DNA of 64,000 nucleotides from Ascidiella aspersa (lineage: Eukaryota), in assembly GCA_963924565.1 (NCBI GenBank), contig OZ004611.1, positions 26,412,001 through 26,476,000 on the forward strand. The letters are read 5' to 3'. Numbering within the stretch: position 1 is the stretch's first letter; every line of letters begins with the position of its first letter. Of this stretch, positions 6,270 through 63,400 are shown in pieces. Made by a program: the position numbers and the translations under genes. The notes under the pieces are model-generated. The model saw only the letters and a list, made by a program, of their open reading frames with translations, did not search any database and was not told where the DNA came from.

Positions 6270-10306
<4,037 letters not shown>

Positions 10307-12088: not shown

Positions 12089-13050
12089 CAGGATATGCTG
12101 TCTTTCATTGTTTCTGTAGGATTAAGCTCATGCAGGTTATCTTTGTAATACTCCAATGAATGTTATACAAAATGTTAGTTAAAAATGAATTACGTTTTGC
12201 TAAAGTGGATTTTTTAGTTACTGTAGGCTATTAAAAAAAAGTTTCCTCAAGCAGTCATTCCGACCTGCTTGACGTGATGATTTTGGCGAAGACCAAAATT
12301 TTAGTCCATTGAAATGTTTAATAAGGGTTTATGTTATGTTTTTAAATCGTTTGAATGACTTTAATTCAATCAAATCTATTTTGCAATGCTGTGACTTGTA
12401 TTGCGCACTATTTCATTGTTTTTAACGCTGGTAGTTAATTTTATATTTCACCATTTGAAATTACATATCGGGATCTTCTTTTGTGATTTTAGGACCTGGC
12501 ATTACATATTTTAAAGCATATTTTAATGATTGGTAAACCCACAAAAGGGAAGCAAAAACGTGATGCATATGCAAACAATAAAATAGTGAAGTAACGTCAT
12601 CCATGAGGGAAAAATGATGTTAAACAAAACATTTAGTTGTGACATAGGTTTTTTTTTTCTGTGTTTATCACAATTATACCATAGTATTTTAGTAGATAAC
12701 AACGTATCGTAAATCTTTTTGGTTTCGCCAATAACCCCAGCCAAAGTAACTTGTTTAAATCTCATTACCCCAACCAAAATTATTTCAGTTTGATTTTGCA
12801 CGCCTAAACGATTTCTCCGGTGTCACGCATCATCGCATCCATTGTAAACAAGAATTTCACTTGGCGATGTAATTTTATATTCCAAAATGGAATATAATAC
12901 CGTTTGCTCTTGAAAGAAGTAATACAACTACTTCAATTTTATATTTCGTAGTTTTAGTAAAAAAATTGTTCACGTGTTTCACCAGCCACTGATAAACTTT
13001 GTAAACTTATTGGCTTATTCCCTTTTCTATACACGTGTTAGTACTTAGTA

Positions 13051-13255
13051 GGGCGCTCGTCTAGAATCCTACCACAACGTTGAAATTATTATTAAGCAAT
13101 GCATAATATGTGGGTTAGGGTGTCGGTTAGTGTTTGGGTGTGGGTAGGTCAAGTAATATTGTTTAACACTATTACTGGACTCACCCAAACCCAAACGCTA
13201 ACCGGCACCCTAACCCAAATAATGTTCGTTGTGGTAGGATTCTAGACGAGCGCCC
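13051..13255. mobile_element. Fold-back MITE with telomere-like arms, upstream of TEP1
   Basis: Perfect 29-bp TIR GGGCGCTCGTCTAGAATCCTACCACAACG; second internal inverted pair GGGTTAGGGTGTCGGTTAG / CTAACCGGCACCCTAACCC; flanking 6-bp direct repeat TTAGTA. Confidence 0.85.
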
Positions 13256-13514
13256 TTAGTAGTTCTGGCTTTCCTTGGTTCAGTTTAAAAAATATTAATT
13301 AATTTATTTAAAAAAAATGCTATTTTCCAGCCTTTACATAGAAAAAGTTTTAGCATGGATGTTCAAGAAAATCTAGCTGTATTTTCCTTAAATATGCGAC
13401 TTTTTATGACTTATTTACTTTCTTTCCAGAATCAAGTTTTCTGCAAATTTAAATGGTTTATAGGAGTGGACAATCTTCTCATTGAAATAGTTAAGTACTA
13501 CTTTCTTGCTAAAA

Positions 13515-19500: not shown

Positions 19501-22500
19501 CAATTTTGAAATGAAAGCTTAGGCACACCACAAACTTTTTGGAATCACTGGTCTGTTGCTAAAATATTTGAATTGTGAAAGTTCAAGCATTGAAAAAAGG
19601 TTGATCACTGTTCCAATGCAGACTTTTTTTACTGTTTTATGAAGGTACCCAGAAAATGTTGATGCTTTCTACAAGAGTGGACTTGAGGGGACCTGGGATA
19701 GCGCAAAAGCCGGCACAAGAATGAAACTTGCAATCCCAAATACTTGGGAGACTCAGGTGTCGCTTAAAGGGAATAAACCAGAAACTTGGGAAAGTCTAAT
19801 TGGTTGGTTGCTCAATGACGTGTTATGGCATAGGAAGTTATTTTGTTTTGTGTTTTGCTGTATGTGTTTCGTTATGCAAATATCTGTGCAATGTCTAATA
19901 AATCATCTAATTCTAAATCGATAATTCCACCCAGTCATAACCCCAATTTAATGTATAGAAAGTAATTCATATTTTGAAAACTGTGATAGTTGGTGTTTCA
20001 AGATATGTTTTTATTGGAGTCCTAACAGAGGCTTTTTACAAATTACTATATGGAAATCAAATCAGTTGTTAGCACAGCTAAAGTGGAGATGTTCAATATC
20101 TGTGATGTCAGTAATATAAAAATGAAAGTGATAGTATGCACATTTACATATGATAACATGGTTGTTCATGATGTGGATTTTCTAACCCAACATTACTTGG
20201 TGCCAAATAAATATTTGAAAGAACCTTGGCAAACAGGTTTTTTGAATACACCCCTTCCGACCCCCAAAACAACCAAAAAAATAGTATATAACTCGTTTTT
20301 TATGCTAGGTCGACTAAACTTCATACAAAGTGTTTTTCCTTTAAACTGCCTTAAATTATTAATCTGCCATTTTTCATTTTGTTGTAGATTCTAAATCGCT
20401 CCCCTATATGGCAACATTGCGCAACATTCGCAACCTGCTGAAAAGTGGAATCAGTCAAAAGCATCGCCAGAATGTTATAAAATATCTCACAAACAAGGTA
20501 CACTGGCATGAATTTAAGATTTTCAAAGTTTATAATATTAAAATATTCATTTTCCCTTTTTTTATTCTATAATATTACAATATTCATTAACCCTATAATA
20601 TTAAAATATTCATTTCCCCCCCCTTTTTTTATAATTGAAATATTTCTTTTAAATTTATTTCTTTAAAGGCACCTATTTTCACTTGAATCAATTCATAGTG
20701 TGTAAAACTAAAGGAAAAAAGAACTGTTGTGATTGATCGAGTTTATGTGCGATGTTTCAAAGAGACAGTATTGCCTAACAGTAACAGCAAAGATATTTTT
20801 TAGAAATCCTATCCTGATCTATTGCGATGGTTTCTGACCATTTGCTGTTAAATTTAAGGCATTGTGAAACAAAACTTTTTATGTTTAATTTTTTTGTTTT
20901 GTAAAAGGCCCATTACTGAAGAAGGATTGAAACTACTGATATAGGGTTTCTCAGCTATATTTTTTATTTTATGACCAGAATGCAGTTGCCAGAAGTCGAC
21001 AGTTTCCCTTTCGATATCTTTCTGCTTACGAAGTTGTCGGAGAATTGCTGGTTGAATTATCAAAACGAGGTAAAACATAATTGCAACCAAATTAAAAAAC
21101 TAACTGAAAGTCCTTGTATATTTACAAAACTGTCGATTGTACATTGTGGTAAATGCTGAATATGACATATCTTGTAGCGATTTTCTTTTTTTTGCAAATG
21201 CTATAAAATCAAAATTCTCTTCTGAACAAAAAATTGGCTTGAATACAAATAGTGAAAAACCAACCATTATGCTTTAAATTTTTAGGTTGTTAAAGTACAC
21301 CACATGTAAAACGACTTTTTTTTTAAATGTATATATGGTTGACGCTCTCATAGGAGATAAATTTATTGATCTCAAATTCCATCTTGGTTTTTAATATTGT
21401 GTCTAGTTAAAGTTAAACACTTTTCCTAAAGTTTTGCTGAACATTACGAGAAGCATAGATCACTCTATATTTTATATATTCTTATCCTATAACTTTTACA
21501 AACTATGACAAAAAAGTGATGTTTTTTTTTGAACCACTTAGAACTTTACAAGAACAAAGGCATCAAGGCGTTTCTTTCCCCTGATTTGCTGGTGTTTCAC
21601 TCTATTAAAACTAAACCATCAACACCAGAAGCTATTGAGGGAAAGAAGAAAATCGCTTCACTAAAGCAGAGATTGAAAAAGTTTGAAAAGTAGGTGGATT
21701 AAGTTAGTCTGATAACAATATATATCAATTATGACGTCAATAGTGTTGATTGTTTAACGAGAACGTCCACACAATAGAATCCTGTTACAACCGACTAAAC
21801 CCTCCGACTATTATAAGATACTAGCGTTTTCCGTTGATCCATAAATCTCCACTTTTTTTTTTTTGCATTTTTGTTTTGATTTTATTTAGTATCTCAAGAT
21901 ACCAGGCTTGGTTTTAAATATTCTAAAAAAGTAATATACTTGTAATATTTATTTTGTTATTTGTAGCGCACATCAGAATCAGACATAAATGCTTTACTTC
22001 ATTTTGTTGATAACTTTAGTATTTCTATTTACGGTTCTTCTTTGCATAAAAAAAATTTCCTCACGAGGCGTGATTTATATTATGCTATTGGAATGATTAA
22101 AGTTGCATAGTTTTTCTACCTTTGTAGCGTCATTCAGAATTATACACAAACAAATTTAATATAAAGTTGTTTTGAGGTTGTTACCATACTGGACATATTT
22201 TAGGAATTCTCTTTGTTTTAATTGCTATAATAGAAATCACAACTTAATCATAGAAAATTAAAAGAAGAGAAGTGTATTTGCAATCGCGGATATATTTGCA
22301 ATACAATTGTTCGTAAAGTGGATTGAACGGTTAAGATTTTGGCGTTCATGTAGAATAGATTGTAGATGCTGTAAAGGAGAAAAAAATACCCTTGTAATCA
22401 AAACTTTTTCTCATGTGATATTTTCTAGAGAGGTACAGTACGACGAAAAGCTGGTGAAGGATTTCCAAACCGCATTGGAAACGTCACTCGACATCGCAAC

Positions 22501-23377: not shown

Positions 23378-26300
23378 AACATATATACAGGTAAACCATG
23401 CCTAAAGTAAGAATGTATTGCAACCTGCTCTTAAAAATTTCTATACATGTATTTCTATTCAATATCGGTGAGTTTACTTTATTATTAGATCAATGTAATT
23501 CACTCTTCGCAAATTATATGGGTACATGCAATGTTATAAACACGACATTTCAAAATGACCTAACTCCCAGTTAAGTAATTTACAAAATAAGTTAAGTTCA
23601 AATCAAGTCATTTTCAACTGTAATGCTATATCAAGTACCATTCCAAGTCAAGTTATTTGCAAAAAAACAGTTGAAAATAAAACTAAGTTGACGATAAAAT
23701 TATAAACGACTCGGTACTCAGGTCAATTATTTGAAAACATCTGAATTAGCTAAAGTCAAGTAATTGATTTAAGTCATTGCAACAACTAGAGTAGCATATC
23801 AGTGAGCAATAGTAGTTTGACATATCTATTTTTACGGACTGCTTTTAATGTTACAAATATATGTTTTTAAGGAATTCTGTCGAACATGAAAAGCATATTG
23901 AAACTGGCAGAGCTGATTCAGACTCAGTTAGAGGACCCGGACCTGAACATACCGATTGGATATCTCAACAAGTTTGTCCTGGAAAGGCAACATGTCGATA
24001 ATATTGTTTTGCTTACCAAGGGGCTTTCGAACGAAGACAATTCAGTACTGCATGAATTCCTCGAAAGGTTTGTTGCGTTACGCGTTGTTTCAATAACATA
24101 CTTTTAGTAGGGTAACCAGGCGGCACTATATAAAGACAAATTGTATTCTCGACAAGCTTTCGCACAACCGTGCTTCGTCAGGTCAATGTAGTAAAAATTG
24201 TCGTTGTATATTGCTACCTGATTACCCTATTTAGAATAGAAAAACACGACCATTTACAAAGATAATTTTTAGTTTTAAACGTGATGGAACTGGCCTATTA
24301 AATTTACGAAATACAGTGTTGATCACCAGTCGCACTAGCGTCTACTGATTAGCTTTGCCAGGACGAAATAATTCTCTATTGAAAAGAAGGCCCGCTGTAT
24401 TTTCGTTCTACTAATTGTTTTCACTGATGATTTAAACTGTCTTCTATTTTGGTGCTCTTAAATAGTTTGGGTATGACCTTTCTTCATTGTTTTGATGGAC
24501 TTGAATGCGAAGGACGTTTTACGAATTGTGATGCGTTTGATTAAATATGCGTTTTTAGACTTTGCCATCGTGTATCTTTAGTTATTCAGGCAATAATTGA
24601 CCTTCATTATTTGCTGTTTAAGAAACTTTGCCGCAGATCAACAAATAAAGCCAGTAAATATAATAGCAACAACCATTTTTTAACTCCAAATCTTAAACCC
24701 TGCAAATACCACTCATTGGGTGTCTCGTAACCTAATATGTTAAACATTAACTTTGCGAATCTCATGGAAGCTCCATTTAAACCATTTGTTCTCAACCTTT
24801 GGTAGACTTAACACTTGCGGTATGATAACGCTTTACAGGTAGACTTATAGCCTTAAGGGGTCCTAGAAAACGCAAATTATATTTTCACCTTTATAAATCT
24901 GCTTCTAAAATTAAAACCAGTAGGTCTATTTATAAGCTTTTGCCAAAACGTGTTTTCAATAGGCAGGCCGGTCTTTTTTCATGGCAAACGTCCACATTTT
25001 CAGTGATAATCATCTAAAATAAGTCTTTTGTGTTCCAGGTATCGCGCTCATGTGAACAAAAGTATGATGTATTACGAGATTCAACTTTCAGGCAAACATG
25101 CCAAGTTTGAAGACGGTTCAAACAAGCAGAATGTCAAGGTAGTCCATGTTTGATGCTGCGACTTATATCGGCTGTTGCGCAAACAAGTAGTGTTTAAACC
25201 AGTCTTTCTCAACCGTTTATGGCTAACGGCACCGCTGAGAAGTAATAAATAGTTTGCGGCACCCCTACAAGATTTTTTCTGTGGTTAACTCACTATATTC
25301 GCAAATAAACGGAACTGGAACGAAACATTTTAAAACTCTACACAATGTAGTAAAATATAATTTTATTTATTGGAATATAATCTTACGCAAAAAGTTGTAA
25401 GAGTTGAGAAAAATCAGTTTCTTAAAGATTCTAAAATATCTTTCGGTACTCTGATTTGCAGATAAAATAGCTCGTTGTAAGAATGTCGTAAAATGAGCAA
25501 CAAACTGCTTTAAAAAAAGGAAATATTTTAAAATTAACAAATTTAGAGACTACAGATAAAATAGCTTTCGTATATACTGTAGTTAAAACACAGTCTATTT
25601 CATGTGGGCGAATTTTCGTGAAAGATTTTAAAATGTGTATATAAGTCCGTGTTATCGAATATAGGATTCGCAAATAGTCTGAAGAAAATACCTATAAATT
25701 TGTCATTAAGTACTTTAAAATCCATCATTCCAGAAAAACAACTAAAAATTTTAAGTAAGTGGCGAATAAAATAACTTACGGTTTTTTCTGTCTATCAAAA
25801 CCAAAAAAATCGTTATCAACTTTACACTTTATTTGTTATAGGTTTGTGGATTCAGCGATCACATTCTACGCTTCATCGCCGAGGGTGGTGGTGAACAACA
25901 AGTCAATTATGTCGAAACAATCGACAAACGAAGAAATCTCGAACAAAAACATGAGAAGATTCAAACACCGGTCGTCTCCTTGACACAGAAGAAAGAGAAA
26001 CTAGCAGAGCGCGACAATATTCGTGTGTTTGTTTCATCCACACTAAAAGGTTAATATAGTTTTTGATGGACAACACAAGTGACAAAATGCAATATATTTT
26101 TTTAATTTTTAAACAATGACAAAAAGCCGTGGGATCTGATCCTCCTGTGAATTAGTTTAGACTCAGGATGAATTCTAAAGCCTATGCAGAAGAAGGTAGC
26201 ACTTTCTAAACGTTTCGATTATTTTTTTATTTATTTTCAACATGAATGGAAAATGATCGATTACGCCAACACACATTAGTGATTGTACATTGAGTTCTGA

Positions 26301-29300
26301 ATTTTCGTCTTGCGTTCATAGAATTCTTAAAACATTGCATCATTTTTAAGTTAAGTTAAGGGCTAGATTTAGATTTTGGTTTCAGGTGGAGCACGGTTAT
26401 TGATATTAAATTTAATTTTTCAAGTTTTGAATAATTTCCATGATTTCTTCCTAAATCCCAAGTATTTAAATAGTTTGTAAACCGGGTACGCATACACTCA
26501 TTAGTGGTTATGCATTGATTTAAATTTTGTTTACCCGTGTAAAAAGCCTCTTCCATTATAACTCTTTTATCAACATTTCTACCGTAGATATGAAACTTGT
26601 TTTACGACTGAGTGATTAACATACATTTTTGCTCGCTCAACCATAGATAATAATATATTTGCTCAAATAAAAGCTTTTCCGGTACGGACGTTTTGGCTAC
26701 CTATACAGGATGCATTTATTAGGGAGTGTAACAACACCACGCAAATTAAAGCGACACCCAAAAGGGGTTTCTGTCGTTTACTTTGCGTTGTGTTGAACGT
26801 GAAATTGTTGCATTCCCACATGAAGGCATCCTATCGGATAACCTAGATAAGTACCGGAAGAGCTTCTTTGCAGTAAACTATGCCTGGTAGCAACAACATA
26901 TTTATAGATAGTACACCGAAAGCCATCGCGGACTCATCGAATCTGTCGATAAATAAGGCAAGAAAGGCAGGCTAGAAAAACAACTAGCCTGCGGTGAGGT
27001 TCGAACTCACGACCTCCGGTCAAGCCGGGACCGTCGCTTGACCAACTGAGCTATGCAGGCTCACAGAGGAGCGAGTCGAGAAACAACAAACGCCCATGCT
27101 TGATACATTCTGTTACTACAAGCAACTTCACATTAAAGAGGATCTACAGTACCATAACAATATTTATAGATATGCTCGGAGAACGGAACATTCTTAGCAG
27201 CTACGTTTTTCCCGAGTTGCGCCGTAAAGCCGCCGACCTTGATCTTAACGTGACTGAGTGCGACCTCCGATGGGGAATTCCTTTAATGGAAAGGGGAAAG
27301 AACAAGACGGTGGAGGTGTGCTTAAGCGAGGTGGAGAAATGTCAACTCTTCGTTGGTGAGATTGTGTTGTAATTATGTATTGAAGACATGTGTTTTATTT
27401 CAAATTTGGTTCAGTGTTAGAAAAAAAAAATAAGTCACTCAATAAACAAAAAAATGTCTTAATTTTTTCGTTCAAGTTGACTAAACTAAGTCTTAAAAAC
27501 GTCGCCAAAACTGATTGTAAAATCTTTCTGTGTGATATACACAAGAAGTTAAAAAAATTCTAAAAAATACAGAAAAGGGCAACCTTGGTATCTATGTGCC
27601 TTTGTAAGCTAGTCCTATGCATCCTAAATGCTAAAGCCATGATATATGTTTGGAAACATGTTTTGATGGATGTGTAATGCATTTTTCCAGTATATTGAAC
27701 ATTCTGTTTCCTATTTATAATGGCATCATTTTAAAGGATGTATTTGTCTAACTCTAATTAGAAGAATCACAGGTGGCACTGTATAAAGACAAATTGTATT
27801 GAATTCTCGACAAGCTTTCGCATAACCGTGCTTCATCAGGTTAAAGCATAATGGTTGTGCGAAAGCTTATTGAGAATTCAATTGTCTTTTCATATTGCCA
27901 CCTGATCCCTCATTTTAACATGTACATGTACATGTTATTACGAATGAATTAAACAAACACGTTTTTACCACTATTGTTAAGGTATTATTGGTGATCGTTA
28001 TGGTTGGATTCCAAAACCAGGGGATTTTCCCAAAGAACATCAACTTCCCGATGATTTGAAAGGAAAATCCATAACTGAAATTGAAATATACCAGGTTGGA
28101 TTTCAATCACACACTAAAAGCAATATGGGTTTTTTCTAATATTGCAGCTTATAAATTTTTTGTAAACAAATTTTGGTCGTGAACAAGTAGTTGTATTTTA
28201 ACTAAAAAAACGGAATTGAATGTTACTCGAGTAGAATTAAAGGTATTCTCTAATCTCTATATAATCATGACATGTGATTGTTTTTTGTAAAATTCTAAGA
28301 AAATTGATTCTTTTTAAAACAGGGAGCTCTGAATTCACAGGAATCGCCGTTAAACAAGGCGTTTTTCTACATTCGAGATGAAAAATCTGTAAATAAGCTT
28401 TCCAAGAATCAAAGGAAAGAGTTTGCAGAGTCAGATGCCAAGAAGCAAAAACTGAAAGTACGCAGCATTGACCTAAAATAAAATAAACTGACAAAGTTAT
28501 AACCTGATATACTGTATTAAAATTATTTAAAAATGTTTGTCCGGGATATCTTTCTATTCCTGTAATAGCAACGATCAATATGTATTGGTAAATACTACTC
28601 CTTTTTTAAATTAATGGTTAGTTTTAAAATCTTTATGATAGGAATTGAAAGAAAAGTATAGTACTCCTGTTTTAAATTAACATTTTTTTAAATCTTTATA
28701 TTAAGAGTTAAGGAAAAATAAATATTACTACTTTTTTTAACTAACATTTAGTTTTAAAATCTTTATTTTAGGAGTTAAAGGAAAATATCCGAACTTCGCG
28801 CCACAAAGTTTGCGATGGATACGAAACCAATTGGACAAAGTCGCAAGATGGAAAGCTGGTGGCTGATAACTTGAATGAGTTTGCTGAAGCGGTTTTGGAA
28901 GATCTTTCCGGGGCCCTGCGAAGTATAGCAAAGGCGAAGTCCAGACAATCTACGCAAGAAAACATTGTAAGTAGGGTCAATTATTTAACAAATGTAGTTT
29001 ACACGGGAGTATATGTTTGAATCAGTGGTGAAAGAAGCAGGGACTGTCCGGAACGGCGTTCCTTAAAAATATTTTTTACAGATACGCCCTATCGGTGTTT
29101 TTACCAGGCTATCCCGCCATCTCCTTGAATGTATTCAAACGAACACTTCAGTAGCCCTTTTGCAAGAAATCGAATAATAACGAAACGTTTCCTAAGGCCA
29201 CTTTTTAGGTGTCCTATTATGACGTAAATTTATGACGTCATCCCTGAAAGTTTTCATGCGTCCCGCTAAAAAAATTATTCATCTTTCCGGTACGAAAAGT

Positions 29301-32300
29301 CTTCTACTTTCAACATTGGTTTAAATGCAAACAACGGGATCTTTACGTAAAATATTTTTTTTAATTTAAGATATGACTAAACGTGTAAAAAAGCTGGCCA
29401 TTCTTCAACCGGGATTATAGGAAAATAAAACCATAGAAATAGGAAAAGCTTGGCGGTACAATGTGATTGTAAGTTCACCTCTATAACTGTTAAATTAGCG
29501 ATTGCCCATAAACTTAATAACTTTGGCATAGGTAATCTTCATATAGCTTGATAATGAATTTCAAAACCAAGAAGGTCGGGCAGACCGACATCTTCTTGGT
29601 AAAGACGTTTTGAAACTGTATCATTTTCATTAAATGCGACATTAAATTTACTATAAAGCTACATCATTCGTGCATAGTGTATATCTGAACTATTTTCCTA
29701 TTTTGTAGGGTTTAGCATCCCTTGAAGTGTTGGTAAATGCACACACCAAAGAATTTGTCGGTCGTCAGCTCTTATTGGACAAAACCGTCTTGTCGTTGCA
29801 CCTGAAAAACCAGCTGCAAGATTCACAGTTTCTCGCAATACACGGACCCATGGGCTGCGGAAAAACAAGCATCTTGTCCATGTTGATCAACCACTTCGAG
29901 AAACTCCCACAGTAAGTTTAGGTCTTCAAATACATTTCATTTTGCCTATAATTGGGACAAACAAGTACCAAAGCCGATTTTACCAGCAATACCAGGAAAC
30001 TTTATTCACTCTTTGGTCCAAATTTATAGCTTGAATTCTTAGCAGTTTACTGATTTTTTGTTAAAAAATGTAGCCTATACTTATGTTTAATGATATTTAG
30101 ACTGTTAAGTAAAAACAAGTTTATACTAATCATGAGGATGCTTTTTTTATCTGGCGAAATATATATTTCTGTTAATATTAAAAATATATTTTATTTTGTC
30201 TATCTGTTTTTACTGAACAGTCTAACTATCAACTGATTAGAAAGCACGAATCTTTTTATATTTTTATGTACCAAAAACAGGGTATTAGCTTATTTGTTTG
30301 ATAATTTTATTGTTGCTCGTTTGTAATTTATGTTTTATAGATTATTCAATCATTGATTCAGTCATTGATTTTGCGTTTTATAAAAAAAAAAGTTTTTTTT
30401 TAGGTGTTGCGTTGTAAAATGTTTCATTGGATGTTTGTCTCGCAATGACCAAACCTCGAAAGTTTTGCTTGACTCACTGATAGCTCAAATGAAATTTCAG
30501 CTGGATTTGAAAGGTTTGTTGTGAAAAGAAAATGTCCAAACACTTTTAGCTGATATTCGGAAAGCTATTTTTGTTGATTTTTGCTTGGTTTTGTACTAGT
30601 TTCAAATCTCTGTATGTTTAAGTGAAGCTTAAGCTTAATTAAAATCACTTGGTATTCAAATTTTTCTGTTACTTTTTTGTAATCTTTTTGACAGATTACA
30701 CCGCAGAAGGTTCGACATTAAAAGACAGCATGGACATGTTTTGGTACTGTGTTGCCTTGTTAACTAAAGAGCACTCAAGACTCGTTTACATCTTCATCGA
30801 TGATTTGGATGCACTTATGTCATCATCAAGTAAAAACAGCTTGCAAGTAAGTGCCTAATATAATCCACATACTTGATCAGAAATGTTGAAATTACAATAA
30901 TTATTTTTGAATTGTTATTTTTATAATGTTATTAGTTAAATCTGGCTTATATAAGGGCGTCTTAAGCCTACTATGGAGAATTTTTTTAAAACACATACAT
31001 CAATGTACATTTAGTTTTACATATATATTAGGGTTGTTTAAAAATACATTTTTTTGTCAAATTTCAGTGGGGACCCCCTGGAATTGTTAGGTTGCGTCTA
31101 AAAACCCCACAAACCAAATCTGAGCACGTTTGGTTCAGTATTGACCGTGCTACGTCAATTTGAAAATTCAGATTTGGGCTAAAATTTTGAAAAAAATAAA
31201 TTGTCCTCCCCCTAAAAAATTTTTTTTCCATTGCTTTGCAATCGAATAGCCATAAATAAACCTGTTTTGCATTAAAAAAGTGAGTAGTCATGGTACAAAT
31301 GTCACATTTCAACAATATTTGTTAGGCTGTTATGTATGAAAAATGGCTTAAAATTTTAAAATAAAGTAGATGCAGCATACATGACATCAAATTAATAAAA
31401 TAGTGCATTTAGTCTTCACACAATTATATCAATTACTTATCTAAAGTTTAAAAAATGTGCTAAAAAGCCATTTTTCGTAAAAAACAGCCTAACAAATGTT
31501 GTTGAAATGTGACATTTGTACCATGACTATTCACTTTTTTACTGCAAAACATGTTTATTTATGGCTATTCAATTGCAAAGCAATGCAAAAATAGAAGAAA
31601 AAAAATGTTTTAGGGGGAGGACAATTTTTTTTCCCACTGAAATTTGACAAAAAAGTGTTTTTTTGAACAACCCTAATATATATATATATTGTATAAGTGG
31701 ACCGTATTGACTGTAGAACACCGCTAGACCTATTTAAGAAAGTTCACTTCTTAAAAGTTTTTAAATAAATGTCGTATAAAAAAAAAGAATGTAAATTATT
31801 ATGGATTACAATTTTTTGTTTTATTGCAAAGAAACACATTTTGTTTTTTGTAATAACACCCCAAAAGCAAATGTAGAAATCTAATGTTTGTGTTTATTTC
31901 CAGTGGTTACCGGCCAAACTGCCACCAGGCGTTGTTCTAGTCGTGACGTGCACAGAGAAAAGCAATGCTCACTATTTCCTACAACAACAGCACGAAGAAG
32001 TTGTGTTTGTTAAAGTACCACAGTTGAATGGAAGGTAATACTCATCAAACATATTGTAACTTCACTTAAATACAAGGCAAAGTAGGGATTTCCGACACAT
32101 TGGCGATTTATTCCGATTACCATACCCGATATGTTGGACTAACGTATCGTGGTCCGATACGGTACAAAAGTACGTCATTACTGTGCTCAAAAAAGCAAAC
32201 TAAAAGAAATAAAAACGTTTAACCGTATTTTGTACCTGGTTATTAAACCAAAATCTGCTCTAGTATTACTAAGTTTAGTTACCTTCAATTGCTACCCTAC

Positions 32301-35300
32301 TATTTTTAGTTTATACATGTCAACTTAAAATCGCTGTGTTAAATCGCAAATCATTGATCAAACTTCAAATGAAGTTGGTATCGAATCGGTACCGATACTA
32401 GCCTTGTATCGAACTAATACCGATACTATAAATCGACATCAAGTGTAGATTCTGGTCCGATACTATCGGACACCCCTTGTGCATTATTACATTATTAGGC
32501 GTAAGTGTGTTAAATAACCAATAATTGTCAATAAACTTGTTTGTGTTTATTAGAAAATATTTTCGTTGAAGTCCGTTATTTCATCAAGGAGCACACATTA
32601 AAAGACACAAATTTTCAGTTTCAAATTAAATATTAAATTCTCTGTGTTCCTGTACCAATTGTTTTTTTTAATGGTTCTTTAGGGAGTCAGCTATGGTTGT
32701 TCGAAGCTTGTTATCTGCATTCAGTAAATCCCTTGACGAAAATTATTTCAACAATCAGCTGAGATCTTTGCTCTTGAAGAAAGGTTCTTCGAATCCCCTG
32801 TACCTGAAAACTGCCTGCGACTACATAAGGTAAGCACATTGTTTGAGTTGCCAACAGGTTACCACAGTCTTTGAATGTCTTTAATATAATTTTATTATTG
32901 AATGTTAAAAAAAACAATGTTTTCTCAAAAGTCTTATTTATTTTATGTCCAGCTTAAGTTATGTGCTTTTTTAAAGTGTCGTTAACATGCTTTTTAAAAT
33001 GCGTTTACCATGGCGTTTATACTGTTTTGGTATTAATAAAAGTGACACATTTTAGGTCGTGGAAAACCTGCAAATTTTCTTTGAAAAGCCTTTTAAATGC
33101 GTTTGAATTTCTTTCATAAAATTGTGTGGCAACCCTGTGTAACGTATTGTAACAAACATCCAATTTATAGTGGTAAACTATCAGAAAATAATTGGCCAGG
33201 AATAAGTAAGGTTTTACCCAAAAATGCGCTTTATATATTTTTTTGGGGGGCAAAACATCAAAAAAGGTAGGAGCGATCGCCACGGTAACGCTTGGCTATA
33301 CCAAGTTGCATAAAAAAATTAAATGCATGTTTAACCAGGTTGTTGATTCAGGTTTGTCAATTTTTACCATCAAGTTTTTAAATACCGTGGTATAAGGTGC
33401 ATGGCCTACATTAAAATGCCCCACAGTCCACTAGTTAAAGCCTGATACACGTGTCGCAAACTTGAAAAAAAAATGATAAAAAACAACAAAGATGAAATAA
33501 TTTATAATCACTTTTTCGTTTCAGGATGTTTGCTGACTTTTCAACTCTAGACGAGGAGCTTTACAAGATGCCGCACACACTCACAGAGCTGCTACAGTTC
33601 TGGCTCCACAAACTGGAAAGGTTCTTGGGCAAATCCTCGCTAATTGCGATGTTCCTCTCCGTCATATATTGTTCTCCTGGCGGAATTCAAGAGGAGTTTC
33701 TTTACCAAGTATTATGCCAAGGAAACAGGTGGGCGCCTAAATGAAAATTTTGTCTATGACTTTAATCAAACGATATACCAATCTGAAGTAGGAGTGTTCC
33801 ATACTTGACATTTTAATCCGATTACGATTCCCTATATTTTTAACAAAAACCATCGCGATCCGATGCGATTTCAATGACGTCATTACTGCTTAAACAAACA
33901 AACTAGTTTAATTACAAACTTTCAAGGAATTTTTTTTCTCAGGTTATTCTGACAAAAAATTCCATAATTTTTGTCAGTTTAATTACCATCAGTTGTTAAC
34001 CTATTGTTTTCTACATAATAAACCTTTCAAAGTAGAAATTGCTGTATAGGGACAAATCATGGTTAAAAACTATTTTAAATTAGGATCGTATCGGCACCGA
34101 GACCGCCCTAGTATCGGACGAGTACCAATACTAACACTTGGCATCTGGTATCGGCTGGCTACGATCAGATATTATCAGACTTTCCTGCTCTAATATAATT
34201 TTACCTTCTAAGAGCTTAATCTATGTTTGGTTTTATCGGTAACAAATTGTTAATTACCATATGGCAGGCAAAATACATTTTTGACTGAGGTTATGGATTT
34301 AAAACCACATTTATATTTGTTACAAGATATATTTAAGCAAATAAGTTTGTTTATAATGAAGTTTAGCACAGTATCAATTTTGTTTAATTTGTTTGTTTTT
34401 TTAACTTTGCACTTTTTTGTTTTAGGATATTCTCCAATTCGGAATTAGAAAGATCTGTGTTTTGTCAAGTTCTTCACCTTCTCGGTGGATTCCTGTTTAA
34501 ATCGACAGAGGAAGGTGGAAAGATATATTTCAATCATGAAATATATGCTGATGCGGTGTTTAATAGGTAATTTGCATGCATTCTCAACACAATATAAAAT
34601 AGTCTTCCATTTGGTGTTTGTGTGTTTATATAATATTGTATAAAAATCTTGAACGTTAAACTTTGATAAAATCTATTCGTGAACGTAAATTGAGCCATTT
34701 CTGCGCACTATGGCAAATATAAAAATACTTTATCAAGTTTGTAGAGCTCTTCTGGCAAATGTAATTTTTATTCCGAAGTTTCGACGTCCTATACAGGTCG
34801 TCTTCATCAGGGTAAATAACACTGAATGCGACTAGTACGGTGCACGATAAACAAAGGAAAAAAAAGAAAAAAAATTTGATGAGGACGACCTGTATAGGAC
34901 GTCGAAACGTCGGAATAAAAGTTACATTTGCCAGAAGAGCTCTACAAACTTGATATTATGCCTGGCAGCAATAGCTTATATATAAACAAACTATAATCTG
35001 TGTACAGTAAATATTACCAATCTTGTAAATGGCCGTATTTGTCTAATTTTAAATAGGGTAAATAGGTGGTATTATATAAAGACAAATTGTATTTGATCTT
35101 TATATATAAAGACAAATTGTATTTAATAAAGACAAATTTTATACCTAATGTGCACAAGCTTGTCAAGATTCCAATACAATTTGTCGTTATATAGTGCCAC
35201 CTAATTAGCCTAGTAAATATTACATAACATGAAAAAGTCGAAGTATACGGTTGCTGTAATTATGTCTGATTTCTGCGGTGTTGGTTTGAATGCTAATTCT

Positions 35301-50300: not shown

Positions 50301-53300
50301 AAAGATAAATGTGGCTAATCGATGTAAGATATATTAAAACATTAAAGAGTTTTTGGGGTTACACGTGATCTCGATATTTAAATTACCCTGGTTTGCGGCA
50401 AAACCTAATGTAAAGGCATACAACACCTTTGACCGAAAGTAGTAGAATGCTTATAGTACACAATTAAATCGGCCATAAAATACTTACATTGAGCAAGGTT
50501 AACACTTTTCAATGGCATTCCTATTATGTTAGCAATTCAGGTGGGTATCCAGAAATCCAACACTAAGGTTTCCGAAATTGAACTTAGGGAATTCTAATAT
50601 CTTTAGTCTGACGTTACTGAATAGGGATGTCATTACTTCACGCAAAAAACTAAACAAAGACCGTGAAATATTTGCGACTGATTTTAGTAGAATCATGTTT
50701 CGACCATCAGCAGCGCAGTTTCCTAAGTTCCATGTACGTTACTAGTTACTACCCCTTCCCCCATGCAATATTACACAGAAAGCAATATTTGTAGTGGAAG
50801 AGTCATCTGTCTGAAAGATTTGGGTGGATAACCAAGCGAAAGGTTGTCAACGGTGAATTACAAAAAAAAACTTATGTCGTTTCACAGAGAACTGGACAAG
50901 GCTGATCTGAGCAGTGCCGTGACTCTACTTCATTGCAAGGACAGTTTGCTCACATGTGCCACTTCGGATGGAAAATCCTGGGAACTGACATTGAAAAAGA
51001 ACCTAAAATTCCAGCTGCCAAAAACAAGACAAAAAAGGTACGTGACGTAACAATATCTTCTAGAATTGCATTGTTCTACATTGAATAAAGTGTACTGTAT
51101 ATTTTCCTACAATTAAACTGTTGAAATAAGGAGCTCTAGATGAAGATAACCGGCTTAGCTTTTTAGGAATAAACGAATTTGCATAAATGCTCCCTTTTTT
51201 GTATTTGTATACCTAATTAGTACGCAATTTGTTTTGTGTTTGTGCTTTTTTTTACGTAGCCTAAATATGACAACAAATAATCAGTGGTATTTTTCCTTTA
51301 TATTTTGTTTGAATTTTTCTTTTCTTACAGTGAAACCGCAAAGGTCTCGTGGTTTTCTTTGTATGTCAACGACCAACTTCTCACAGACCAGGCTATCTCA
51401 CCGTCTGGCCCAAGTATGTGTTCTACTTTTTTGTGAGCAATGTCAATTCAATTCAAAAACCAAAATCAGTTAAAGCACTTTCATTCATAAAAAATACCTA
51501 AAAGCCCTTGTAATAGCTTAAGAAGTGCACTGTGAAAATAAATCTGTTAACAAGGTCTAAAACTTTTAATGTAAATATGCAATTTCGCCATTTAAAAAAA
51601 TGGCATCATCTGTTTATCTGTACAAATAAATTGTAAAAAAATTTAAAGTTTTACAAATGTAAAATAAGTATTATTATAGCACAGAGTAACTGGATTGTTT
51701 GAGGTATTTTGAATTATAGGTAGATAAATATTTATCTACGTTTAACATTGTTGCTCTTCGAATTAAAATAAACCTTTTTTAAATCTGAAAACAAGTGGCA
51801 CTTTTAACAAGTTGTGTTTAATGATTGTTGACAAGCTTTCGCGCAACCGTGCTTAAGGTTTGACCTGATGAAGCACGGTTGTATGAAACGCTCGACAACA
51901 GTGAAATGCAAAGTGCAAATTGTTTTCAATTTTCGAATAAAACAAATACGGTTATCAACCATTTTTTCCAGATGTTGTTGCTTGCGCTTCTGGCGCATTT
52001 ATCTCCTGCATGAATTTTATTGACGAAGGGAGTGCACTTGCATTTGGAGACAATCTCGGAAACATTTACCCCCTTAAGAAAACCTTAAGAAGGGTACAGT
52101 ATTTCTTGGGAGACAAACCTTTATTTATATTAATGTTTTGCTAGTGTAATCTACTTTCAATGGTTTGAGTTTCTAAACAAAGCATATTTTTATATATAAT
52201 TAAAGGTATTTTTTATGCTGTAATTTTCTATTTGCTGTGCTGTAAATGTATATGTATTTATGCTATGTTCTATGCTGTAATTGTATTTTTTCTTTTCTGT
52301 AAATTTGTATATAGTTAATTAATATTCATGGTGTGCTGTAATTTTTAACCATTCTCTTCTATGTACTTTTTTTAGATCCACGCTGATAAAATCACTTCCA
52401 TCAATTCCTGGCGTCAATATGTGGTCACTACTTCTTTCGATCGTATGGTCAAGGTGTGGAGAAAAGATAATTTCAAACAGGTTTGTTAAATGGAAACTTT
52501 ATTTAAGTGTTACGGTTCTTTACGAAATTAATAAAGCCTAATTTGTTTATTTTAATACATTGTATTGCAAAGATGTTGTGGGCGGTATATGGAGACCTGA
52601 TTTTTAGGGTGATTAAAAGTTAATGTTATTATAATTGGTACACCGAAAGCCATCGCCGAGATAACCGAACCTGTCGATTAAATGATGCAACTAAACAAAG
52701 ACTAAACAAAGATCAAGGCAGGCTCGAAAAATAACTATAGCCTGCAGTGAGGTTCGAACTCACGACCTCCGGCCATACCGGCCTGTTAATTCAAACTTTT
52801 AAATGTCTAATTGAATGACAATCGTTTTTTAGTTGAAATTTGTCTTTCTTTAGACAATTGCTTGATGTTTTATTGTCGTTAGCTCGTTGGCTTTAAATTA
52901 CAATTTTTTTTTCATGAAGGTTTCACCTGCAATCAAATATTTAATAGACAACAGAAGAATGACCAATAATTTGCATTCATAAAACATAAATTTAAAACTT
53001 CAAGGGCTATATCCAGGGTTACCATCTGCTCAGACCAAAAAATAAGCACGCTACACCAAAAAATAAGCACGCTACTAAAGATCAGGGACAGATCCAGGAC
53101 TTCGGGGGTGATATCCAAGCTTTCAGAAATAACGTTATAAAATAAAATATAAACCTAAAACACCTATTTTTGTATGCGCAAAACGTAGCTTAATCCCACG
53201 AAGCGTGAAAATAATGCGTTTATTTGATCGAAGTTGGTAAAACCTTTTATTAAGAGACCAGGCGGCGCCAAACCAGCATTAAGGGCGTTTATAAAATGTT

Positions 53301-60402: not shown

Positions 60403-63400
60403 ATGTCGCATACTGTAATGAGCGGTGGCCACGGTTCCGGCGCCGGTCTCCTGCCGCGAATCGAGCACCCCCTGTCCCGGCTGGACCGGCCCGAGACCAT
60501 GTCGGTTCGGGGCATGAGCCGAGCCAGGAGCCGGACCGGTAATGACTTCACAGCGGAAGTAAAGCGAATGAGCCGCGCCCGGTCGGTGACCATGAGCCCG
60601 CGAAGAAAGGACCTGGATCCAAAGATGCCGGTTCCAGCCATTCCCGAAGGTGTTGAAGTTGTGCGTTCGGCAGACCAGAGCAAACCAACGCTGCCCGTGT
60701 TCGGTATGTCGATTTGTATGTTGTTCTTTTTCGTTTTTTGGAAGAATCAATGACGTATATTTTGTACTAATTTAAGGTTCCAGCAGCGACCTATCCTTTT
60801 CTAGTACGTGGCTTGGCATTGAGATCATGTTTTAATTCGGCAAAGCTCAAACAACTTACATAGCTTTTTCTATCTTGCTTCTTGTTCTTTTCGCATTCCT
60901 TTACGGCTTTTTAACGCAAAACGATCTTAACAATGTTAGAAATAAATAAGTGAAGGACGCTGACGTTCAATCCTTTGGCCCAAACAGTTAACGACGAAAT
61001 CGATTTGAGTTTTTTGATTTGTTTATCTTATTTAAGATTTGCAAACGCTTGTTAAATAACGAACGAAGTTTATTTTTGTCTGTTTAACCTATGGTCATGG
61101 CCTTGTACACATTCCTACCTTGTTTAGAAATGTCAATGCGCAACTGAAATTGTAAGCATCAGTCGTGAACTAAGCTTTAATTTGTAGTATAGGCGTTATG
61201 AATAACGTATGAAGTATCGTTTCAAGTTGCACTTAAACTAAATTATTCTATAAACCAGAGACTGATTTTACTTTATATAACATATGCCTAACCAATACCG
61301 TTTTCGACTTCTTAGCAGCCTACAAGGATCAGTCAGGTAACATTAAGTCATTTCATTAACATCTGTATCAATGTATAGAAAAACTAAATGCATGTCCATA
61401 GGTGTATTGTATCATGTCATTCCCCTTCTAATAATAGACGTATGCCTATATAACGGTGAAACTCAAATACCAAACTGCATGATGTATTAGAATGACAATT
61501 TATGCGTATAGGTCTAACTCTAATACTTTTTTGTTATTTACATTATTTTACATGGTAAGGTGTGGACTTTTGCAATTTATACCCACCTGGTAACATGTGT
61601 ATATATAGTTATTGACCAATTGTAAATAAAATAACTTCTAAATAGAGAACCAAATTATCTTGCAGATAATTTGGATAGTGTTTGGTATCAATTTAGTTGG
61701 CCTATAGCCACTGTAATGCCGCATTTCGCATTTATTTCTGTGTTATGTTTATGAAAGTAAGATGGCCGCAACTTGGTCTTGCAATATAAATGAATTTTGT
61801 AAATCAGACGCTTTTATAAAAGCAAGTTTATTACTAAAAACTGTTTGGTTTAAGATTTTAAGGGATGAGAAAAGTCAGAAGTATTTGTACTCAACAAAAA
61901 GCAAAGGCGCCGTTTTCCTATCAAATAAGTGTTATTTGTTGCGTTTTTCGAACGTTCGTTGTTTTTACCCAATCCAATGTATTTAATTATCCTTCAACTC
62001 GTTTGAACTCGTAGGCAATCGAGCAGTGATGAGTCGGGCTGAGTCGCGTGCGAGTAATACGAGTAAGATGTCGGCTTTGTCGAGACCCGGAACTCAAGCT
62101 CGGATCGAAGTTGATGAGGTATGTTTATTGTTATTTAAACTGTTGACAAAGCACCGTAATCATTTAATCTCACAGTGAAATCAAATCCAAAGCTCTTTTT
62201 CACTATTTGGAAAAAGTGACGTATATTTGTATTCGAGCAAACTTTAAACCATGAACACCCAGCATCCGTAATAATGTGATACAACCGGTATGTGGTTCGT
62301 CTAAATCTGTGGTTCCCAACCAGGGGGGGATTTTGTAATTTGTAGGGGGGAATTTGTGTCACAATATTAATCAAATAGGGTACAAAGAGGCACAAAGAGG
62401 AATATTAGAAGGTATAAAGCTTAAAATCGAGAGATTAATTTCTGTTCTAAGAATTACATTAAAATTATAATGTAAACGATATTTATAAAACTAAATTTCT
62501 ATGGTTATTAGAAAGTCCGACATAAATGTAAAATACCTACATAGAAAAAGCAAGTGTGTTTAAGGACCGGGGCATTTTTTTGTAAAACGGTAAAAAGTAT
62601 AGATGAAGCACGGCTGGAAACATTTCAACTTTATTTAACCTCCGCAGCTTGAAATGGCGCTCCGTAACAAGATACGCACCGGAGGATACTTCGCCATTCG
62701 TCAAGCGTTTAAGAACAACGACCCCGAAGGAAAGGGCAACGTAACACGGGAAGCATTGCTTCACATCATTTCCACATTTCTCGGCAAAATGATCCCGTCA
62801 AAGCTATTCCATCTTCTGCTAAAAAGGTAAGTCTTGTTGTGGTAAAACGAATACGGGAGTATCTTAACTTTAAGCGCAATTTTCAATTATATACTCAACA
62901 GGTTTCTAAGGGTTTTAAAACTACTTTTAACGTGTCTAGGTTAAAACAAGACTGTGATTAATTCCATATTAAACATATTTATTTGCAGTTTGTAAGTTGA
63001 AAGGTAGGCCTGTCACGCCAAAATTGGTCCGGCCAAAACTGGTCCGGTCGGATCGATTTTGGCGTTGGAACAGCCGCTAAAACAGGTCTGGCTAGGGTTA
63101 GGGTTAGGCCGGACCAGTTTTGGCCTAGCCGGACCTGTTTTAGCGACTGTTCCAACGGCAAAATTGATCCGACTTTTAGTTCAAAACGGTCTATGAAGGT
63201 TCGAATATATACAAAATAGACAAACGTCTTTAACCGTACTTCTAAGCCTGTTTTGTTTTGATACGTCGCAGATTGCATTTGGAAAATCAGAGCATCGTCA
63301 AATTTGACGAATTCTACGCCCAGTTTCGCGAGAGCGTGTCTTCAGAATATCCGAGATGGTTGGATCCAATTGCGCGGATGCAAGCTGAACGATCAACCAT

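Follow-up and report, generated by a model that had tools for sequence, protein, structure and literature searches.

A short hammerhead-bearing fold-back in Ascidiella aspersa, probably assembled from two Penelope-like element fragments

The 64,000 nucleotides of Ascidiella aspersa DNA analysed here (the window) contain a short fold-back sequence near position 24,100 whose minus strand carries a minimal hammerhead motif. Sequences of this kind could move as fixed hairpin units, possibly as MITEs, which are non-autonomous class II elements, or could be left behind by a Penelope-like element (PLE), as remnants of its pseudo-LTR (pLTR). We asked which of these origins the letters at the locus, its relatives in the window and the family in the rest of the genome favour.

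The insertion and its relatives in the window

Positions in the pLTR arms are counted on the natural young copies L111 or L113, with the A of the AUG in the CUGAUGA core as +1 (L numbers are our labels for genomic loci). The features are collected in Table 1.

Table 1. The insertion, its relatives in the window and a tandem copy elsewhere (window positions unless a locus is named)
Feature	Position	Strand	Basis or remark
Entire insertion: two 3'-end fragments of a PLE pseudo-LTR, arranged head-to-head	24108..24263		alignment to L111, L113
Untailed arm, about -16 to +76, carrying the hammerhead	24108..24195	-	85% identity to L111
Minimal type I hammerhead: 5-bp stem I, core, extra A, 4-bp stem II, AGCU palindrome, CUU triplet	24149..24186	-	sequence and folds
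Inverted arm, from about +39, without ribozyme	24192..24229	+	alignment
34-nt PLE tail restricted to this arm, about +79 to +112	24230..24263	+	end point common to many genomic copies
Candidate target-site duplication, left copy	24100..24108	+	9 bp, one mismatch vs 24265-24273; weak alone
Candidate target-site duplication, right copy	24265..24273	+	pairs with 24100-24108
Second copy: left arm carries the tail and the ribozyme core (minus), right arm starts at about +10	27735..27909		11-bp duplication, one mismatch
Third copy, with small internal repeats and without core: tailed left arm starting at +33, right arm at about +20 (or +13)	35018..35211		
Perfect 12-bp duplication of the third copy	35006-35017 / 35212-35223		
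Decayed fourth copy: left arm starting at +4, right arm starting at -9 and carrying a damaged ribozyme	51787..51911		
Tandem 46-nt ribozyme insertion	L067:786-1044 and 8771-9029; also L070, L153, L009, L236		

A sequence-only reading of the window had ended the element at 24229, with symmetric TAGGGTAA termini and with TTTAG as a duplication on both flanks. Homology of the right arm runs on to 24263, so the element is asymmetric: the right-hand TTTAG (24230-24234) is element sequence, being the first five letters of the tail, and of two end points the TAGGGTAA terminus is the shorter, terminal on one arm and internal on the other. The quoted hammerhead and the three relatives survive from that observation; the ends, the TTTAG duplication and the palindrome with two ribozymes do not. 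By alignment the arms span about -16 to +76 and about +39 to +113, with terminal inverted repeats of about 38 bp, and the copy is an older one, 77-85% identical to young copies. A TATA-like word at 24127-24134 (plus strand) lies in the pLTR antisense to the ribozyme and is altered in the young subfamily.

Relatives of the fold-back are present at all three other loci named in the sequence-only reading. Their two arms span -15 to the tail and +10 to +80 (27735-27909), +33 to +108 and +20 to +70 (35018-35211), and +4 to +72 and -9 to +43 (51787-51911); at the last of these no target duplication was found. The ancestral element had been pictured as a palindrome with a ribozyme on each arm; in the window, not one of the four copies has both ribozymes intact. 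The second has the core in its left arm only and the third in neither, while in the fourth one arm lacks CUGAUG of the core and in the other stem II and the palindrome are broken. Against these four copies in 64 kb, 150 kb of DNA sampled nearby and at arbitrary places contained none, which makes the window richer in them than the average.

At 34731-34982 lies a second PLE fold-back, unrelated to the first, which carries a minimal hammerhead of its own on the minus strand (core at 34810). The parent frame of this family (at L262) encodes reverse transcriptase (RT) and GIY-YIG domains without the CX4CXXC linker described below, and would be of the Penelope/Poseidon type. The protein has 25% identity over 458 columns to that of the first family, and the hammerhead motif differs in stem II and reads CG where the first family's palindrome has GC; the two are separate lineages. 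The family's 29-nt pattern has 122 exact copies, and it too has two 3' end points, near +76 and +105.

Plus-strand pieces that look like exons match TROVE at 19646-19921 (E 1.9e-17), WD40 and, weakly, DUF4062 (E 0.015, below the cut-off). From 19646 to 47640 this strand is likely one gene, which hosts copies one to three of the family along with the second PLE; presumably it is TEP1-like, a name we take from the TROVE/WD40 domain order. The insertion at 24108-24263 likely lies in an intron of this gene with its ribozyme on the opposite strand, and since it points against the gene, the ribozyme would not cut the TEP1-like pre-mRNA.

Elsewhere in the window, GPP34/GOLPH3-like exons lie at 6596-10306 on the plus strand (domain match for 9863-10303). 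A tRNA-Ala-like sequence at 26985-27061 (minus strand), within a repeat of at least 250 bp with 3317 first-look candidates about 87% identical, is likely a tRNA-derived SINE. Long inverted repeats without a ribozyme core at 13050-13256, 31193-31632 and 63047-63173, the last with a GGGTTA-like loop, are better MITE candidates.

The hammerhead motif and the parent element

The letters at 24186-24149 of the minus strand are exactly those quoted in the sequence-only reading, and the sequence and folds place the predicted cut between 24154 and 24153. Both for the motif alone and for the whole hairpin, where the motif sits in the loop, the predicted fold contains stems I and II, with pair probabilities of 0.99. 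A strict hammerhead descriptor matched once in the window and in none of 200 doublet shuffles. The 45-nt motif alone folds no more stably than its shuffles (z -0.87), Rfam at its gathering score gave no hammerhead match at the locus, and the predicted dimer fold is a duplex other than a double hammerhead. Where both arms carry the ribozyme, folding back destroys its stems (predicted probability 0.0 in L064); the stems are predicted to be kept in the locus studied here and in a single arm.

Among 129 distinct motif copies the core is intact in 90. Across the 129, stem changes on both sides are absent, and a single one-sided change, U-G/U-A, occurs in 22, a pattern expected of copies decaying from a few masters. 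According to portions of PMC4209133, a single minimal motif from a PLE gave no cleavage and dimers gave low cleavage. One genomic insertion of the family has two or three tandem 46-nt ribozyme units (Table 1); it lies inside the 4-kb inverted arms of an 8-10 kb element, has been copied with that larger element, and is a natural construct for dimer cleavage.

The 28-nt core pattern has 376 exact copies in the 308.6-Mb genome (control 0), and the 27-nt pattern downstream of it has 421; a 29-nt pattern just upstream has 71 and is specific to the young subfamily. First-look candidates numbered 1602, of which 40 were scored. Longer copies extend upstream of the ribozyme into a 3' UTR and then a GIY-YIG frame, and their interiors, where identified, are PLE sequence in every case; no sequence common to the copies was seen beyond the tail. 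The clearest parent frame, at L112, is a single one of 488 aa with RVT_1 (Pfam E 3e-10) and GIY-YIG (Pfam E 2.3e-7) domains, both above cut-offs. Its 3' UTR leads into the ribozyme, and it is flanked by an inverted 168-bp tailed arm at the 5' end and by a 13-bp duplication.

The sequence-only reading had proposed a minimal, dimer-type hammerhead from a PLE pseudo-LTR. The RT and GIY-YIG frame directly upstream in the longer copies bears out the pLTR origin and points to the same assignment for the motif. That reading had also suggested looking for an autonomous PLE with the same terminus: a frame with both domains exists in L112, and an intact full-length element was not found among the 10 candidates reaching the N-terminal RT region, a search that gives a lower bound. 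The best of these is 5'-truncated and frameshifted, and no partial tandem of pLTR, ORF and pLTR occurs among the same 10, again as a lower bound.

In translation, the linker before GIY-YIG reads CX4CXXC. A CX2-5CxxC linker before the endonuclease marks Neptune and Nematis in the sections of Craig et al. (2021; PMC8557442) drawn on here. By this linker the parent would be a PLE of Neptune/Nematis type, the motif being unable to tell Neptune from Nematis. The family is apparently unnamed, one more representative of the known EN+ PLE layout.

The 3' UTR of L113 (6319-6399) has ten A-to-G differences in RNA run X6, in about a quarter to two thirds of the reads. Six of these sites follow T, and of 40 distinct genomic arms 0-2 have G at any one of them. 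The cluster, seen in few reads from both mate directions, would fit A-to-I editing of fold-back RNA.

Insertion ends and the origin of the fold-back

Ends were surveyed in the first 100 of the 376 listed exact cores (contigs C1-C3), which represent 90 insertions: 53 inverted, 36 with a single arm and one other. Their outer ends cluster at about +70 to +85 and about +105 to +113, so that the family has fixed 3' end points about 35 nt apart. A long and a short end are combined in 44 of the inverted insertions, nine have two short ends and none has two long ones; there are 45 distinct pairs of arm starts among the 53. The arms begin anywhere from beyond -1000 to +44, and neither the greater length nor the tail is tied to a particular arm. 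Duplications, called at 10 bp or more with one mismatch allowed, flank 34 of the 53 (median 12 bp), against a rate of 3.2% in 600 mismatched pairs of flanks; among the single arms they flank 18 of 36 (control 4.2%). The other 19 inverted insertions have none of that length.

A wider set, comprising the loci to L237 and the window, is enriched for ribozyme-bearing and fold-back copies, and its counts apply among the matches listed. It holds 99 distinct inverted insertions of 60-1596 bp, many of them at 125-240 bp, and again no long end is paired with another (86 long and short, 13 short and short). Both arms span the ribozyme in 31 of the 99, one arm in 60 and neither in 8.

We put a probability of about 0.93 on the reading that the locus consists of two head-to-head 3' fragments of a PLE, one tailed and one with the hammerhead, likely co-inserted by the RT and endonuclease of the element and not moved as a DNA hairpin. 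In the parts of Frangieh et al. (2024; PMC11167929) used here, a lizard PLE protein cuts and extends both strands of AT-rich DNA in vitro, and two internal RT start sites bound the tail. On that model, the ascidian protein would place two nicks, one per strand, about 12 bp from each other in AT-rich DNA; one cDNA would be primed at each nick from internal start sites at about +78 and about +112, and both cDNAs would stop early and then be joined at their inner ends. By this analogy we infer twin priming in the family. The ribozyme is probably a passenger of the pseudo-LTR.

The sequence-only reading had joined a PLE pseudo-LTR origin, which stands, to amplification as a fixed hairpin unit, possibly a DNA MITE, which does not. 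A PLE-derived hairpin of fixed form, spread by a DNA transposase or by re-retrotransposition of the whole fold-back, would account for the real terminal inverted repeats at the locus and for the many copies of similar short length. It would also suit the four of 24 pairs with near-identical centres (enriched set, among the matches listed) that do not share flanks. The best of these, L074 against L080/L174 (the latter two being one duplicated site), has near-identical centres (46/50, a one-letter difference) in unrelated flanks; nothing else in these sequences hints seriously at re-use of a hairpin. The remaining 20 pairs do share flanks and so were copied passively within larger repeats. In the genomic insertions surveyed, the ends are variable and of PLE type, the outcome that the earlier reading had itself set against MITE-like mobilisation. 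The MITE reading fails on the asymmetric ends, on centres, lengths and roughly 12-bp duplications that vary from copy to copy, and on single arms making up 36/90 of the insertions; amplification as a fixed unit by either route is very improbable.

Much the same low standing belongs to a non-LTR retrozyme, in which ribozyme-cut, circularised RNA monomers would be reverse-transcribed. The ribozyme is of the minimal type I, a three-unit 46-nt array exists at L067/L070, and retrozymes are reported as PLE derivatives in the portion of 10.64898/2026.07.22.740005 drawn on here. The arrays that were found share flanks and hence descend from one insertion, however, while most copies are head-to-head or single and those in the window are not tandem. 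A start at the cut site (+23 to +29) is seen in just 1 of 100 arms (first 100 of the 421 listed downstream-pattern matches), and ribozyme cleavage does not appear to set the insertion ends. The choice between routes within the PLE machinery is closer, though we still consider it unlikely that the fold-back arose by self-priming or a template switch of one cDNA onto the antisense strand instead of by two primings on sense RNA. Such self-priming has been proposed for head-to-head PLE insertions in Adineta (in the part of PMC3846280 consulted), several fold-back centres have small palindromes and extra letters, and the TATA-like word of the locus points antisense. Against it stand the two separate fixed end points of the arms and the fact that the tail, or the greater length, can fall to either arm, a pattern that fits the use of two start sites on two nicks.

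A further regularity concerns the upstream ends of the arms. From 100 downstream-pattern arms we kept the 76 that were non-duplicate and at least 96% identical to a young copy, dropping 24. Of the 56 young arms reaching -9, 30 end between -9 and -20, or 6.1% per base, as against 0.3-0.9% in other bins, including the adjoining -21 to -50 (2/26); the excess has p about 1e-12, for a bin picked after the data were seen. Several single arms that stop here are bounded by duplications, so these ends are real. The stop point suggests the 5' end of a template. We offer tentatively, at somewhat less than even odds, that most short copies are run-off products and not random truncations. The RNA would start 9-20 nt upstream of the ribozyme AUG, and RT primed at +78 or +112 of the 5'-most pLTR would copy to the template end, giving a ribozyme-headed, strong-stop-like mini-element of 90-130 nt.

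In D. virilis, by the part of PMC2377424 used here, a start site lies inside the pLTR. The stop-point stretch is 83% A+T, and microhomology joining to AT-rich targets, with chance extension of alignments, could contribute to the pile; a smaller pile at +32 to +44 is AT-rich too, and the stop-point ends are spread across 12 nt. RNA read starts on L113 form no pile at the cut site or the stop point in one run (433 reads, about 6% of the run), from a standard paired library that may lose ends. The second PLE family has no such stop point (1 of 19 arms at risk). As its cause in the first family, an upstream exon common to these copies or a spliced leader was considered and rejected: by eye, the flanks upstream of the arms that stop there share nothing. 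The literature searched, outside of which lie subscription papers, Repbase, Dfam and supplements that may hold the idea or the family, contained no text joining Penelope or the pLTR to 'strong-stop' in the PLE sense and none on ascidians, Penelope and hammerheads together. If the run-off reading is true, it would account for many lone minimal hammerheads against few full PLEs in genomes, and the template 5' end would have been mapped from DNA alone. Were that point the 5' end of the transcript, the excess of solo minimal hammerheads that animal genomes contain would have a simple explanation.

Comparison with known systems

The PLE layout described in the available parts of PMC8557442 and PMC3846280, an inverted 5'-truncated copy with a 30-40 bp tail at one end, recurs in the ascidian family. 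As in canonical EN+ PLEs, including Adineta Pen2/Pen2a, 3' fragments lie head-to-head, the tail of that length is confined to one end, the duplication is variable, RT is followed by GIY-YIG with cysteines between GIY and YIG, and the ribozyme lies in the pLTR. The differences are in scale and target: most insertions here are shorter than 300 bp, their targets are AT-rich with no (TA)n targeting by eye, and duplications are about 12 bp where those of Adineta are 8-10 bp. The CX4CXXC linker upstream of GIY-YIG is shared with Neptune/Nematis PLEs, unlike the second family of the window, which is without it.

All features of the minimal hammerheads of metazoan PLEs, as given in the sections of Cervera and De la Pena (2014; PMC4209133) used here, are present: an extra base after A9 (between 9 and 10.1), G10.1-C11.1, a palindromic 15.2-16.2 and a short closing stem I of 4-5 bp. 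As there, motifs are mostly single ones from truncated PLEs, with opposite-strand pairs 100-700 bp apart. The ascidian motif differs in its stem II (4 bp, against 7-8 bp in Schistosoma), its CUU triplet and its little within-family variety. Retrozyme work, by contrast, treats tandem arrays in the part of 10.64898/2026.07.22.740005 seen.

The closest mechanistic parallel is with Poseidon PAc of Anolis, a PLE of another clade. In the portions of PMC11167929 that bear on this, its ORF begins at an ATG in the ribozyme core, the cut site lies 26 nt downstream of that ATG, and cleavage is unnecessary for insertion. The ascidian family likewise has an ATG in the core, a predicted cut at +25/+26, a tail between two start sites and an outer end near +112; it differs in that the frame from this ATG meets a stop near +80 in copies read by eye. 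Its insertion ends avoid the ribozyme cut site, which agrees with the in vitro finding that insertion does not need cleavage, and the family offers a clean genomic record of two start sites, each used once per insertion.

The insertions resemble MITEs in being short and non-coding, with inverted terminal repeats and hundreds of copies. They differ from them in having no fixed ends, size or duplication, and in being derived from and co-linear with a retrotransposon. Short PLE fold-backs of this kind look enough like MITEs to be at risk of being misfiled as DNA transposons.
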